64,000 bases of DNA from Amphiscolops sp. MND2022 (GCA_964187785.1 OZ076409.1:65598001-65662000), one strand, 5' to 3'. Numbered from the stretch's first letter, positions 4,741-18,992 are shown. The notes: generated from the sequence alone by a model not told the origin. Translations and numbers: made by a program.

Positions 4741-5089
4741 AGTCATAACTCTTATTTTCAGAGTCTTGGTTTTGTCACTTCTCTCAAGATGATTCCTCAA
4801 AAGATGTCGAGCGGTAGTCAAGATGCTTGGGACGCAATCCACTTTTGGTTGGGAAAACTAAACTGTTCTTTATCTGTATTATTCGTTCTTATGATTATGA
4901 AATTACTTTTTCTCAGTTGGTCGAGTATTCAATAAATGTCAAATAGTTTCAAATGTCAAATAAATAGTTTCAACTTGTATGTTTATATTTATATAAATAA
5001 AAGGTTATTGGCAAGCATTCAAGATATTCCTTCTCAATTTTTATGTTTTCTGTTTTCGGTCAAAGAAGATCATCATGGAACACATGACA
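4741..5089 (-). repeat. 3' LTR (349 bp)
   Basis: Direct repeat of 18644-18992 with 2 substitutions; termini TGTCAT...ATGACT on the minus strand. Confidence 0.97.
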
Positions 5090-5101
5090 CTTCCTCCCAT
5101 C
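5090..5101 (-). promoter_or_regulatory. Polypurine tract
   Basis: GATGGGAGGAAG on the minus strand immediately before the TG of the 3' LTR. Confidence 0.85.
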
Positions 5102-5427
5102 AAGCTTTTCCGGCCTCAAAAGAAACCATCATACAGCTGGAGAAAGAGTCAGGTCGTATAAAATAAAGAATCCAAAGTTGAGTATGCCAATGATTCCATT
5201 ATCCAATAATAAGTTTGAAAAGAGGTGCAGCACAAGATCCTAAGTTGTCCAGAGTGAAGAATCCAGGTGTTATTGTCTTCGTTGATGTTATTGTGAATCC
5301 TTGGTGTTCATTAGCCAGATTACTGCATTATAAATTTACATATACTGCAAGAGAAATATAAAAGCAAAATGTTTTATGAGATGATAGGATAATTTTGAGT
5401 TCAGTTCGTGAAGTCAATCAAATGAAA

Positions 5428-7765
5428 TCAATCATCAGTGGTTTGACTAAAAGGGATCATGGGTTGGCCACCAATAAATTGCTTGCGGACAATTTCAATT
5501 TGACTGTCACTGAGCTGGGTAGTGCCATCACTGCAGTTACCAATGATTGATTCAGCCATGGTAGAGGGTGACTTTTTTTCGAAATGAACGGCTTGACGTG
5601 TAGGAAAGGAGGGGAAAAATTTGAAGCGGTGCCCCATACGTTTTTGAAGTTCAGGGAAGTCATCTTTATGTTTTTCGGGAATTTCGAAACATGGTTTCAG
5701 TTTGATTTTTTTGTTCATTAGTTTTTTTGAAAACAAGCGGTCGGCTAAATGATATTTGTGATAGATGTACATGAACAGTAAATGCAATACTGTCAAGACA
5801 ACAAAAACAATACAAGTCAAAGTGAAAAGAAACTTTAAAGGGGACATATTGATTAAAGTCGCGGGTGAGCGAGGGTTTCAAAAGTTTCATATCACTAGCT
5901 AGTAGGCGAGCTTTGGCCACTAATTGGTTGACTTCACGAATTCTTGGACTATGTACGAGTTCTTTACGTACTTGTTTCAAAAACTTCACTCCTGCTTCTG
6001 CTTTAGAGTCATATAAGGGCAAATCCTCTAAAGATGGGACTTCCATTATGAGCGATGCTAAAGGATTTGGCAATGAAATTCGCAATTTGATGGCGGGTAT
6101 ATGATTGCAACTTGATAAATCAGACCTGATTTTGATATGCTTCGTCATGATTTGCATGCCACACTCAAGGGTAATAATACATATACGACAGCCTGCAAAT
6201 GATTGTGTTTTGGATGAAGCGGCTGTGGCATGAGATTCGCGAAATATGAAGTCATCATTGACAGATGTTATCAGCCAAATACCGAAACCTAAATTAGTAG
6301 CTTGTTCCGTAGATGGCAAAGAAACTAGGGAAGTGTCACAAACTGAAAGGGCATCAACGGAGGAGTCAAAAAAGAGCGTCGCCATACATGATGAATGACC
6401 CATTTCGGTCTGGAATGTTTATGAACAGACGCGATATTTCGAAGAGCCGAGGCATTGTTCGAATTGTGCTGCGGATAGGACTGACGATTCCATTTGGTCT
6501 TCTGAAATGGCTAAATATGGTGCCTCAATATCCCACTTAAGAGCCAATTGAGGGTCATCGGGGTAAGGCATCGGAATTAGTTTAGCTTCAAATAGTGTGA
6601 AAACGGTTTGTCCAGAAGCCAACGATATACTAAGGGTCATCAAGAATCCTTCTGGCACTGTAACGGCATCAGCGAGCAAACGAGAATCATAGTATGAAAG
6701 AAGGTCGGTCATCGGGATTGCTAACGAAAGGCGATCAGTTGCCTTGCTTTGTTCAATCGCTACTCGTTCCAAGATCACGAGGAGTGATTCCATCGGAATA
6801 AGCGACATTGGTAAATGACCTCGCAAAACAACAGGAATAGAATTAGGAATGTTCATGCGAAAAGCATATAAGGCCGAACGAAAAGCTTTGATGCTAGCAT
6901 GAACCATACTAAGAAGCGAAGATAATGTATCAAAACTGAAATTCAACTGTTGGTTTGAGAATAACATTTGATTACAATCGCGTAAGATGTGAAAGTTATC
7001 TTCGAACGCGTCAAATTGTTCCTGTATGACGGCCCAATTTCGGTTCTGAGTTGCTGACATTTCAGCTTGGATCGCATTGAGTGCGGCGAGTTCGTTTTTC
7101 ACTAAAAAGAAGTTTTCGTCAGTGTTCAGTTGAAGTTCTGTTACAAATTGTGTCAAAACATCTTGGTAATCGGAAAGGCTCCGTATGTTGGCAGCATTGG
7201 CTTGGGCTTGATCGTGACAGCCCCCAAATATTCCCTGAAGACCACAAGAGTCGGAACTTCCCATAGCGATACCTCCTCCGAAGAGTCCAACAGCTGCCAG
7301 AGCAGCGAGGCCTACACCAGCGCCTCGTCGTTTACGCGGTTGTTGTTCAGAAGGTGGACGTAAAAACATTGAGGTTTCATTCCGAATAGTAGTCAGGTCG
7401 GTTTCCGATTCTTGAAGCTCATGGTTGATTTGAAAGAGCATCCAGTTAACGTTGAATCCGGAAGAATTTGACGAAAAGTGACTAGAGAAATTCAGGGGCC
7501 AAAAAATAGAGATCAAGTCCCACATTTTTGAAAGGCGTTGAATCAGTTGTTCAATGTCCGGTTTTAATGTAAATTCATAAGTTGGAAACGGAACGAGAAA
7601 CTCCACACTGATGAATTTTTCGAAAAGCAAGATTTTGTTACGCTCGTTAAATAGTATCCCTTTTTCTAGAAGATCATTAGGATTATTAGAGGCTTCAATG
7701 TTAGATGACCATTGACTAGAAACGGAAGCAGGAGTGAAAGCAAGGTAGGCGAGAAAGAACAGCAT
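5428..7765 (-). CDS. env: Envelope glycoprotein, class I fusion (F-type), about 780 aa; one in-frame stop (6419) and one frameshift (~5825) in this copy
   Basis: Signal peptide MLFFLAYLAFTPASVSS; furin site RKRR followed by the hydrophobic fusion peptide GAGVGLAALAAVGLFGGGIAMG; heptad region; Cys-rich ectodomain; TM 'FTLTCIVFVVLTVLHLLFMYIY'; ~105-aa cytoplasmic tail. Confidence 0.88.
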
Positions 7766-16631: not shown

Positions 16632-17893
16632 CTACTTTTTTTGATAGTGGATACTTGTGCTGCGTTCATAGTTTTTTGGAGTCTGGTTGAATGGATTGTG
16701 TGTCCCACGACGTGGAGCTGGCCCTTTTAGACTACAATTTGGTGCCAGATGGTTTGGATAACCACATTTGGGGCATGTTATTGAGGACTGCTGTGTATAC
16801 GGCATATAATTCGGATCAGGAGTAAATACTTCAAAACTCGCTTGTTGTTGAAAATTAGGATTCTGTTGGCCCGAATTTTGAATTGGATTATTCTGATTTT
16901 GCGTCTCATTATAAGTTATGTCTGACTGAGTGTGCAAGAAGTTATTATTGAAATTTTGAGGTTGTTGATACCTTGATGAAGAGTTTTGATAATAATTTCC
17001 TCTGTTTCCGCGATAATTTGAACGTCCGCGGTATCCTCGATTATTTCCACGGTAGCGTCCCCGATATGTACCACGATTTCCGCGGTAATTAGAATTTTGG
17101 CCACGATTTTGTGAATACGAGCCTCTCTGAGACTGGTCAGTCTGGTTTTTACTAAAAGCCTCCAACTGATTCGTTAAGGAGTTTTACGTTCTTCCATCTG
17201 TTTGGACATCTCGTTCAATCGACTGTCCATTGCCTCTTGACTTGTAATTGACTGTCCATTGCCTCTTGAGTCGTCTGTTTTGCAAAGATTATGTATAGAC
17301 AATTGTTTGCGTGCAAAAATACATAAATCATCTACTGTTGTTTTCCGGCTGTTCTAAGAGTTTTGCGTGTAGCCATTCTGGCATATTCTTTATAAATTGT
17401 CGGCGAATTTGATTTGATCTAGCTTCTTGAGCAGATCTTATTATTTCTGCACGACGAGCAGTGTCTTGGTCGAAACGTGTCTGTTCAACAGCCGCGTCAG
17501 GAGCTGCGCCGTCGATTGGTGCAACTGCTGGCGGATTTGGATCCGGATACGCTTTTAAAGCTTTAGTCTGTAATGTAACTAAGAAGTTTTCCGGATTGTC
17601 TGTTTTGGCATCAAATTTAAGGTTTTCGAGTTTCAAAACGTGAAGTTCTTCTTCGAAAAATGATTCCGTAAAGCAGCAATCGAAGGTTCTAGATCTTGGC
17701 GTGTTGCCAGGGCAACGTTTGAAAATAACGTAGGGCTGCGTCACGAAGATGCAATTGTAAAAAATTCGCCCGCCTGCTGATTGGCTGGAACCGCTGCGAC
17801 TTCAAGAATGCTTCGGAGCAAATGTTCAAATTCACGAAAATGTTCGTTTTCCGTACCCGAATAAGGAGTAAGAGTTAGCTGAGGTTGAGCCAT
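16632..17893 (-). CDS. gag: Gag (frameshifted; RG/N/Q-rich region and CCHC knuckle)
   Basis: ATG at 17893 (MAQPQLTLTPYSGTENE...); 'YRGNRGTYRGRYRGNNRGYRGR'; 'CPKCGYPNHLAPNC'. Confidence 0.85.
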
Positions 17894-18629
17894 TATAAAA
17901 GATTAAATGACAAGAAAGAAACAACAAGTCAAGAATTAGATTAGAAGGATTAGAATTTCGTAGAAAAGCAAGAATTCGAGAAAAAAAGATCGAAAGGTGA
18001 ATCTCAACAAAACAATTGAATGAAGTTGTGAAAAAAATTGGAAAAGGTGTGCGGTTAAAGTTCAGAAGAGAGATTCAAATGCTTCGAACGGTTATGAATG
18101 AACTCTCAGTTTCAGAATTTACAAGTTTTTGTAGTTTTTTTTCGAAATCAAAGTGCGATAGAGTGCTGAAAATGAAGTCAGTTTGATCAGCTATTGAGAC
18201 TTTAAAAGAACATCATTATCAATTTACTACATCAAATTTGGCTTTAAACTCACCAAACGCATGTGAACTGAAAGTTGTGAAGTCATCACTGGGAAAGTTG
18301 AATTCATCATTCATTCCAAAAGTTGTTCCAATGAATACATCATTGTTTGTTGTCAAACATCAGCATCAAACGTATTTTCTTCAAAGGCTTTACACGTGAC
18401 AGTAAAATGGAAAAATAGAGTTGAAACAACGTCTAGTAGGAAAACGCAATTTGTAGTGTTTGTAGTTATCAAGATACTGCCGGCCACTGTTGTTTTAGTT
18501 TTATCATCGGTGGAACTGGATGTGGACGTGGATGTGCAGCTGAGCAGTGGTCGTCTGGGCGTGGCCTGTGTTTTCCCGTTGGACGAAGAAAAGATTAGTA
18601 CTCTGTAGCATTTTTCTTGTGGATTGTTG

Positions 18630-18643
18630 TACTCCTGTCACCA
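18630..18643 (-). promoter_or_regulatory. Primer-binding site, tRNA-Leu-like
   Basis: TGGTGACAGGAGTA directly after the 5' LTR; resembles the complement of the tRNA-Leu(CAG) 3' end (TGGTGTCAGGAGT). Confidence 0.75.
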
Positions 18644-18992
18644 AGTCATAACTCTTATTTTCAGAGTCTTGGTTTTGTCACTTCTCTCAAGATGATTCCT
18701 CAAAAGATGTCGAGCGGTAGTCAAGATGCTTGGGACGCAATCCACTTTTGGTTGGGAAAACTAAACTGTTCTTTATCTGTATTATTCGTTCTTATGATTA
18801 TGAAATTACTTTTTCTCAGTTGGTCGAGTATTCAATAAATGTCAAATAGTTTCAAATGTCAAATAAATAGTTTCAACTTGTATGTTTATATTTATATAAA
18901 TAAAAGGTCATTGGCAAGCATTCAAGATATTCCTTCTCAATTTTGATGTTTTCTGTTTTCGGTCAAAGAAGATCATCATGGAACACATGACA
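18644..18992 (-). repeat. 5' LTR (349 bp)
   Basis: Direct repeat of 4741-5089. Confidence 0.97.

Follow-up and report, generated by a model that had tools for sequence, protein, structure and literature searches.

An intron-containing antisense gene joining an integrase-type zinc finger to a putative OTU deubiquitinase in env-bearing Gypsy elements of Amphiscolops, with relatives in other classes of mobile elements

An F-env Gypsy Element with Genes on Both Strands

We analyzed a 64,000-nucleotide stretch of the genome of Amphiscolops sp. MND2022 (GCA_964187785.1, OZ076409.1:65598001-65662000; hereafter, the window), in which a 14.2-kb long terminal repeat (LTR) retrotransposon occupies positions 4741-18992 on the minus strand. 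Between its pol and env regions lies a gene running antisense to both, with five exons and about 340 codons, whose product combines an integrase N-terminal extension and HHCC zinc finger, an OTU-fold domain, and a basic tail. The element itself shows the order protease, reverse transcriptase, RNase H, integrase (PR-RT-RH-IN). Pfam detected the reverse transcriptase (RT; 8e-20), RNase H, and the integrase (H2C2 and rve), along with weak matches for the protease (0.19) and a dUTPase (0.024), and in a comparison with solved structures the RT was closest to that of Ty3 (6e-8), with the HERV-K and foamy-virus RTs scoring similarly. The LTRs differ at 2 of 349 positions and are enclosed by a single target-site duplication (TSD), which bears out the proposal of a preliminary description, made from the sequence alone, that all modules travel as one unit. 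In this copy gag, pol, and env are each interrupted, and the antisense gene has lost its intron-1 acceptor and carries two stops in exon 4; the element is a defective member of an F-env Ty3/Gypsy (errantivirus-type) family with recent activity. Its features, beginning with the antisense gene, are listed below (ORF, open reading frame; aa, amino acids; TM, transmembrane).

9383..9690, plus strand: first exon of the antisense gene, covering the YPYY-like N-terminal extension of integrase type and the His pair of the HHCC finger
9777..10042, plus strand: exon 2; CxxC of the finger, linker, and OTU catalytic-Cys motif; the acceptor ahead of it is lost in the window copy
10111..10277, plus strand: exon 3; OTU helical region
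10349..10542, plus strand: exon 4; carries the His motif of the OTU domain (HCEP) and, in the window copy, two in-frame stops
10609..10684, plus strand: exon 5; 24-aa basic tail ending near a Trp, candidate nuclear localisation signal
8139..8450, plus strand: antisense small membrane protein, 103 aa, with an acceptor-like site directly 5' of the ATG
8889..9176, minus strand: extra sense ORF, 95 aa, an optional accessory frame
5428..7768, minus strand: env, class I F-type, with signal peptide, RKRR furin site, fusion peptide, and C-terminal TM segment; interrupted here
11209..11565, minus strand: TARG1/OARD1-type macrodomain at the C-terminal end of the integrase ORF, behind a long low-complexity linker
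12400..13525, minus strand: integrase (H2C2, core, C-terminal part), from Pfam; split by a stop in the window copy
13950..15250, minus strand: reverse transcriptase and RNase H, from Pfam; best solved match Ty3 RT
15862..16113, minus strand: dUTPase-like domain without catalytic motifs, between PR and RT, from Pfam and structure alignment
16249..16503, minus strand: aspartic protease, from a weak Pfam match and a DTG motif
16632..17850, minus strand: gag with CCHC knuckle, fragmented in the window copy
4741..5089, minus strand: 3' LTR, 349 nt, 347/349 identity with the 5' LTR
18644..18992, minus strand: 5' LTR, pairing with the 3' LTR
5090..5098, minus strand: polypurine tract, at the place expected for a minus-strand element
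18626..18643, minus strand: primer-binding site (TGGTGACAGGAG...)
4736..4740, repeated at 18993-18997, no strand: 5-bp TSD ACGCT flanking the outer ends of the LTRs

The Antisense Gene Has Conserved Introns and Is under Purifying Selection

The intron structure of the antisense gene recurs among its homologs. In the 30 readings from group A, one of two Gypsy groups that carry the gene, GT..AG was found at homologous places for each of introns 1-3 in 28 cases, the GT of intron 4 was present in all 30, and the short basic tail of exon 5 was present in 29. Exon identity amounted to 59-81%, against 36-69% in the intron cores, and exons 1-4 were free of any stop in 27/36 readings. The ratio of nonsynonymous to synonymous substitution rates (dN/dS) was 0.08-0.13 in five of nine disjoint pairs, the remaining four being saturated (proportions of synonymous and nonsynonymous differences, pS 0.76-0.85 and pN 0.20-0.31). 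The gene is kept under purifying selection, and the neutral evolution of accessory ORFs, raised in the preliminary description as one outcome that would undo its proposal, does not apply here. No conserved long sense ORF spans the antisense exons. A longer frame at 10551-10853 was rejected as exon 5, the short basic frame being the conserved one, and minus-strand frames across exon 1 were regarded as shadow ORFs.

The start of the gene is commonly preceded by a splice acceptor-like site, which was present at most 30 nt ahead of the ATG in 35 of 42 exon-1 starts as compared with 209 of 2040 random ATGs. No donor matching this leader acceptor was found, including in an LTR scan of distant families; 18 donor-like columns were common to at least five of seven variants and fell mostly within conserved env sequence, which makes them uninformative. 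Within the LTR, positions 4985-4997 form a near-palindromic TATA-like run, readable on both strands in the seven variants checked, which could drive antisense transcription; the sister families checked showed no such run close to the edge of the LTR.

The Product Resembles a Ginger1 Transposase Lacking Its DDE Core

In Pfam, neither OTU nor H2C2 was matched by single exons or by small ORFs, the exons of the Gypsy gene were not among the hits of a genome search with PF02338 (17 matches among 25 candidates), and exon 1 matched nothing in phages, nor did its profile match anything among longer proteins. The PF02338 search led, however, to a BEL/Pao element in which an ORF of 325-347 aa, antisense and free of introns, adjoins the integrase downstream. 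When the exon-wise Gypsy readings were aligned with this Pfam-positive ORF, hhalign returned a probability of 98% (E 1.6e-13 over 251 columns), in which the Cys and CxxC motifs of both forms coincide. In a test of hidden Markov models on 107 sequences, 8/8 BEL-type proteins were recovered at E<=0.005, and the best of the 99 others, reversed controls included, reached 0.099. The BEL form is assigned to OTU by Pfam (3.8e-6) and by Foldseek (OTUD3, 4.5e-5). The C-terminal part of its structural model (predicted local distance difference test, pLDDT, 82) matches OTUD1/OTUD3 (VIA Z 11.9), and residues 2-106 match the N-termini of the integrases of foamy virus (Z 7.2) and Ty3 (Z 6.9); the OTU fold also matches nairovirus vOTU (Z 10.5-11.6). 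In the Gypsy gene the catalytic Cys is kept in 36/36 readings and the His in 34/36, and the BEL form has canonical GDGNC/HVD motifs, with the Asp present in the BEL family L039-L045.

When 1.84 billion representatives were searched with a profile, 421 matched at E<=0.001. Among 44 proteins scanned, three compact ones (292-318 aa) consist of Integrase_H2C2 and OTU without rve, and three longer and more distant ones combine H2C2, rve, and OTU, which is the layout of Ginger1 (PMC2836005). The compact proteins lack rve, and in the Gypsy gene there is no room for a DDE core between the CxxC and the OTU linker. The YPYY motif is recognisable in the BEL form and only positional in the Gypsy form. Terminal inverted repeats (TIRs) of the gene's own and a 4-bp TSD, as in Ginger1, were not seen, no inverted repeat of at least 40 nt being present inside the window element, and the position of the gene is constant across families. 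Judged by this domain make-up, the antisense product is a Ginger1-transposase-like protein minus the DDE core, and the OTU domain of its Gypsy form may be a deubiquitinase. The OTU-like protease of the preliminary description is retained as a fold, through the profile match to the BEL protein, and corrected to one domain of a spliced five-exon gene with an integrase-type zinc finger.

Copies of the Family and Exchange of the Accessory Block

An LTR search of the 1.07-Gb genome returned 40 scored matches among 66 candidates. We examined 17 LTR pairs; 16 belong to full-length copies (13.6-16.2 kb), and the last to a copy with an internal deletion, L033, which was excluded from the copy counts, as L023, with an internal duplication, was from the exon counts. 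Each of the 17 pairs has its own 5-bp TSD and an identity between LTRs of 336-352 of 346-352 positions. The pol-env accessory block was kept in 16/16 other full-length copies, at 2.8-3.5 kb and at 5.8 kb in the one with the internal duplication, so that a one-off or nested insertion, the doubt attached to the preliminary description, does not account for it. The env frame exceeds 700 codons in 13/17 copies and the frame from RT to macrodomain is open in 5/17 (window copy counted), most other copies have a gag frame of about 430 codons, and env measures about 780-790 aa in relatives.

Among copies the accessory block occurs as divergent, mosaic, swapped variants. A swap of the RT between elements was considered and dropped, the in-frame RT identity being 74-89%. 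In L024, L091, L102, L103, and L108 the accessory block, or a portion of pol, appears as a tandem duplicate, which may be a real amplification or an assembly error. A 12-nt motif of the primer-binding site (window 18632-18643) occurs 7993 times in the genome, compared with 65 occurrences of a reversed control, an abundance pointing to a very large clade with one primer tRNA.

Distribution across Classes of Mobile Elements

Exon 2 gave 150 scored matches among 273 candidates in the genome, at 30-100% identity. Of 20 diverse loci, 14 were sister Gypsy families arranged in the same way, macrodomain and small TM ORF included; five were a second Gypsy group, group B (RT 57-59%), with env seen in 4/5; and one lay within an 18.2-kb element of another kind, about 400 nt inside its end. 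A further 14/14 loci were all Gypsy group B, with an env match in 12. The intronless form was traced to BEL/Pao elements at 6/6 loci, with 105 matches of 133 scored in the genome. These carriers measure about 7 kb, with LTRs of 307-311 nt and an H2C2, rve, and DUF5641 complement, DUF5641 being presumably a BEL marker; no env was seen in them, and in the families L071-L076 and L104-L109 the antisense H2C2-OTU ORF starts at the 3' LTR.

The 18.2-kb element has TIRs of about 140 nt, a 6-bp TSD in 2/2 fully read copies, and a boundary common to 5/5; it encodes an integrase (rve, 1e-11), a Pox_A32-like ATPase (6e-4), and a PolB ORF recognised by motifs only, for which no Pfam, PHROG, or PDB polymerase match was obtained, and a capsid was not confirmed. 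Mavericks are characterised by a length of 15-20 kb, TIRs, a 6-bp TSD, an integrase, a packaging ATPase, and PolB; the element can be read as Maverick-type. At least five near-identical copies exist, at C3:67589118-67607323 (L087, L085, L064) and on C12 (L079, L080, L088, L089), and exon 1 of its gene has seven near-identical copies in the genome; beside the OTU-like gene lies a variable array of repeats of about 700 nt, and the PolB ORF contains an endonuclease VII-like insert. Phylogenetically, the Maverick gene groups as the sister of Gypsy group B (support 100/99), and a Gypsy-only clade was rejected by the approximately unbiased (AU) test at p 0.007, on a quick tree and for a group named post hoc, after the first tree. 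This topology and the AU rejection make a gene exchange between Gypsy and the Maverick-type element likely, in either direction. All three carrier classes use a DDE integrase.

Two further occurrences were recorded. In another assembly, a relative of the gene (L126, 1744-2754) stands head-to-head with a SET-domain ORF (2-1354), and at L037, L043, L044, and L048 there are ORFs of up to 2747 codons with a canonical OTU, probably Helentron-type proteins.

The Other Accessory Modules and Env

The macrodomain matches human OARD1/TARG1 in a sequence search (E 1.4e-16), and a Lys in 28/28 loci and an Asp in 27/28 stand at the catalytic positions. It is a TARG1/OARD1-class macrodomain fused to the C-terminus of the integrase. 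Genome-wide, 1266 candidates for TARG1-type macrodomains were found, including families about 36% identical within frames of 1850 codons. In the dUTPase-like domain, aligned to 3tqz (E 0.13), the positions of what we take to be the conserved catalytic motifs of active dUTPases are substituted. Env shows RKRR and a hydrophobic fusion peptide; its Atlas features lead to PF00523 clusters (0.95), with recognition below the mark of the tool, its sequence matched nothing in PDB, and 1/9 of its relatives scanned for Baculo_F matched (P0274, 3.6e-7).

The small membrane protein has a signal-like hydrophobic N-terminus, a Cys-containing ectodomain, one TM helix, and a basic tail. It was found in 16/16 other full-length copies, frameshifted in some, and is less constrained (dN/dS 0.16 and 0.71 in two unsaturated pairs). 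Of 42 small-TM matches, two of which were false, 32 have an acceptor-like site ahead of the ATG. The group A and group B proteins gave a weak hhalign match (13.9%), and we accept their homology because of position, a CCxxGT motif, and topology. The 95-codon sense ORF, overlooked in the preliminary description, is present in 12/16 other copies and 6/14 sister loci, with dN/dS 0.09-0.32 and a predicted fold of pLDDT 88; its resemblance to the PH superfold is weak (Z<=5.7), and neither an Atlas match nor a viral fold at E<=0.001 was obtained for it.

The macrodomain, the small membrane protein, the pseudo-dUTPase, and the F-type env of the preliminary description are thus all recovered. Its view of a complex Gypsy lineage that bears env is supported as well, the accessory genes of the two strands being conserved and subject to purifying selection. 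What does not hold is an obligatory toolkit of four modules, given that group B keeps the OTU gene and shows no macrodomain or dUTPase-like match. Elsewhere in the window lie an unrelated second Gypsy-like element (20988-23635, plus strand), a long interspersed nuclear element (43743-47512, minus strand), and the host gene for the TATA-binding protein (55115-55795, plus strand).

Comparison with Known Systems

F-type env is widespread in invertebrate Gypsy "ancient errantiviruses" (Chary & Hayashi, PMC13524379), with which the present family shares gag-pol-env, a paramyxovirus/baculovirus-F-like env, a furin site, a fusion peptide, a multicopy state, and recent activity. It differs in the additional 2.8-3.5 kb between pol and env, whereas that survey allowed a POL-ENV distance of at most 1000 nt; macro, OTU, antisense, and dUTPase go unmentioned in its main text. 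The env of Lokiretrovirus is likewise F-like (PMC7947760), and dUTPase-like domains, F env, small TM ORFs, and shared ORFs are on record from planarian elements (PMC6431247). The bdelloid rotifer elements TelKA, Juno, and Vesta (PMC5408684) have in common with ours a dUTPase-like domain between PR and RT, a paramyxovirus-like F, small TM ORFs, and the sharing of ORFs between unrelated retroelements, which here extends to a DNA element; their extra ORFs encode a GDSL esterase and a DEDDy exonuclease, and an antisense or intron-containing ORF is unreported in the parts available. Macrodomain capture is shared with fish epsilon-like endogenous retroviruses (Basta et al. 2009, as cited in PMC4977317), which are vertebrate retroviruses. 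F env, dUTPase-like domains, and captured extra ORFs are therefore already known singly.

Ginger1 transposases (Bao et al., PMC2836005) share with the antisense gene a YPYY-like N-terminus, the H2C2 finger, a C-terminal OTU, and introns. The gene described here, however, lacks the DDE core and GPY/F, encodes about 290-345 aa, and is an accessory gene inside LTR and Maverick-type elements, whereas Ginger1 is the transposase of a TIR element. OTU-type proteases also occur in the integrase- or Rep-based adintoviruses/Mavericks (PolB-OTU, PMC8502044) and Helentrons (PMC6431247), where they are fused to a replication protein; here the domain belongs to a separate spliced gene with an integrase-like N-terminus. 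The small membrane protein recalls the sORF2/FAST-like proteins of MDG1-group LTR elements of insects (PMC11952523) in being a single-pass protein of about 100 aa with a juxtamembrane basic patch, but is antisense, stands beside a full env, has a signal-like N-terminus (group A), and shows no MGxxxS/T myristoylation motif in the starts seen. The passages of PMC4695847 consulted contain nothing on elements. The literature searched offered no description of a spliced H2C2-OTU gene lying antisense in an LTR element; Repbase, Dfam, GyDB, and subscription papers lay outside that search. The most interesting part of the system is this integrase-tip/OTU gene family common to several classes of elements.

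Possible Roles of the Antisense Gene

The joint reading that we favor, and for which we see the case as evenly balanced, is that of a nuclear protein acting at integration, with the OTU domain and the integrase-fused TARG1 domain erasing ubiquitin and ADP-ribose signals. The accessory genes of the F-env family would be functional, the window copy being a broken one. Their antisense orientation would protect the introns from being spliced out of the genomic RNA and let them survive reverse transcription, and the protein would be translated from an antisense RNA entered via the acceptor just ahead of the ATG. It would then enter the nucleus, where the integrase-like N-terminus may bring it to the integration complex or to DNA ends; there, the OTU domain would strip ubiquitin or a ubiquitin-like tag from the integrase or nearby chromatin, and the integrase-fused TARG1 domain would strip ADP-ribose. 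At the site of insertion, both erasers would damp down or direct the signalling of DNA damage and the turnover of integrase, with the small membrane protein as a separate trafficking or fusion helper for env. An integration role fits better than a cytoplasmic immune role because the three carriers share only the DDE integrase, and OTU/Ulp1 domains have been suggested to act on DNA repair during transposition (PMC2836005). The preliminary description had framed the macrodomain and the OTU protease as immune antagonists in the manner of coronaviruses and nairoviruses. This framing fares poorly: the macrodomain is TARG1-class and fused to the integrase, the OTU domain is fused to an integrase N-terminal module and a basic tail, and the OTU gene is also found in BEL/Pao elements, with no env seen, and in the Maverick-type element. 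Coronavirus Mac1, for its part, is a MacroD-class macrodomain. Both erasers most likely act in the nucleus at integration and not as coronavirus-like immune antagonists.

Several observations weigh against the integration reading. The Gypsy gene receives its OTU label transitively, by way of the BEL protein, with which it shares 19% identity, and the His motif lies outside the part aligned by hhalign between the two forms. The GDGNC Asp, three residues before the Cys and an expected OTU feature, is replaced by Gly in 35/36 spliced Gypsy readings and by Arg in the window copy. Group B elements manage without a detectable macrodomain, and no integrase was seen in the 3.7-kb contig of L126. Moreover, variants of the antisense gene are 57-62% identical between copies whose RT is 99-100% identical, variation of a kind that is met more often in conflicts with the host than in housekeeping cofactors. 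This strong divergence of the cassettes, and their mosaic exchange among copies with near-identical RT, would suit a counter-defence in which OTU and macrodomain remove the marks of antiviral or transposon-silencing pathways, in the cytoplasm or on chromatin, and cassettes are swapped in an arms race. The fold shared with nairovirus vOTU, the env-bearing and virus-like nature of the carrier, and the occurrence of OTU in adintovirus PolB (PMC8502044) point the same way. Yet both domains are physically tied to integrase modules, the macrodomain is TARG1-class, BEL/Pao elements, where env was not seen, retain the gene, and selection within variants is purifying, so we regard counter-defence as unlikely, though deserving serious attention. 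It is compatible with action at the integration site; the two are not mutually exclusive.

Antisense genes of complex retroviruses, such as HBZ of HTLV, tune the replication of their own virus, and on this model the integrase-like N-terminus could poison or modulate integrase multimers, the OTU domain being a ubiquitin-binding pseudo-enzyme. The antisense position towards the 3' LTR in Gypsy and BEL elements, the absence of the DDE core, the change from Asp to Gly, and the loss of the His in 2/36 readings speak for such a self-limiting regulator, which we nevertheless deem improbable: the invariant Cys (36/36) and the canonical GDGNC/HVD of the BEL form argue for catalysis, and the carriers belong to recently expanding families. 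Least credible, and very nearly dismissed, is a neutral passenger, i.e., a deletion derivative of a Ginger-like DNA transposon that entered an ancestral element a single time. The domain order and the introns are indeed Ginger1-like (PMC2836005), but a dN/dS of about 0.1, conserved splice sites, and 27/36 readings stop-free in exons 1-4, across genes down to about 30% identity, stand against it, as does the independent presence in three classes of elements. The selection data refute it save for an overlapping sense function, and no conserved long sense ORF spans the exons.

In a wider formulation, which we put forward tentatively and at somewhat less than even confidence, the gene would represent an undescribed Ginger-derived mobile family, pairing an integrase N-terminal module with a deubiquitinase, that serves in trans as integration cofactor or counter-silencing factor and is traded among Gypsy, BEL/Pao, and Maverick-type elements. 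In Gypsy it would form a spliced antisense unit, possibly through unpaired acceptors (trans-splicing), making complex retroviruses with exchangeable cassettes.

Significance

Complex vertebrate retroviruses are marked by antisense accessory genes that possess introns of their own, and dozens of invertebrate Gypsy loci here preserve such genes under selection. Surveys demanding env close to pol miss this class of elements. The intronless BEL form offers a natural single-ORF protein suited to biochemistry. Finally, the presence of one accessory family in three integrase-using classes makes testable the idea, raised for the OTU/Ulp1 domains of Ginger1 (PMC2836005), that ubiquitin and ADP-ribose signalling may limit integration and that elements would carry erasers of these signals.

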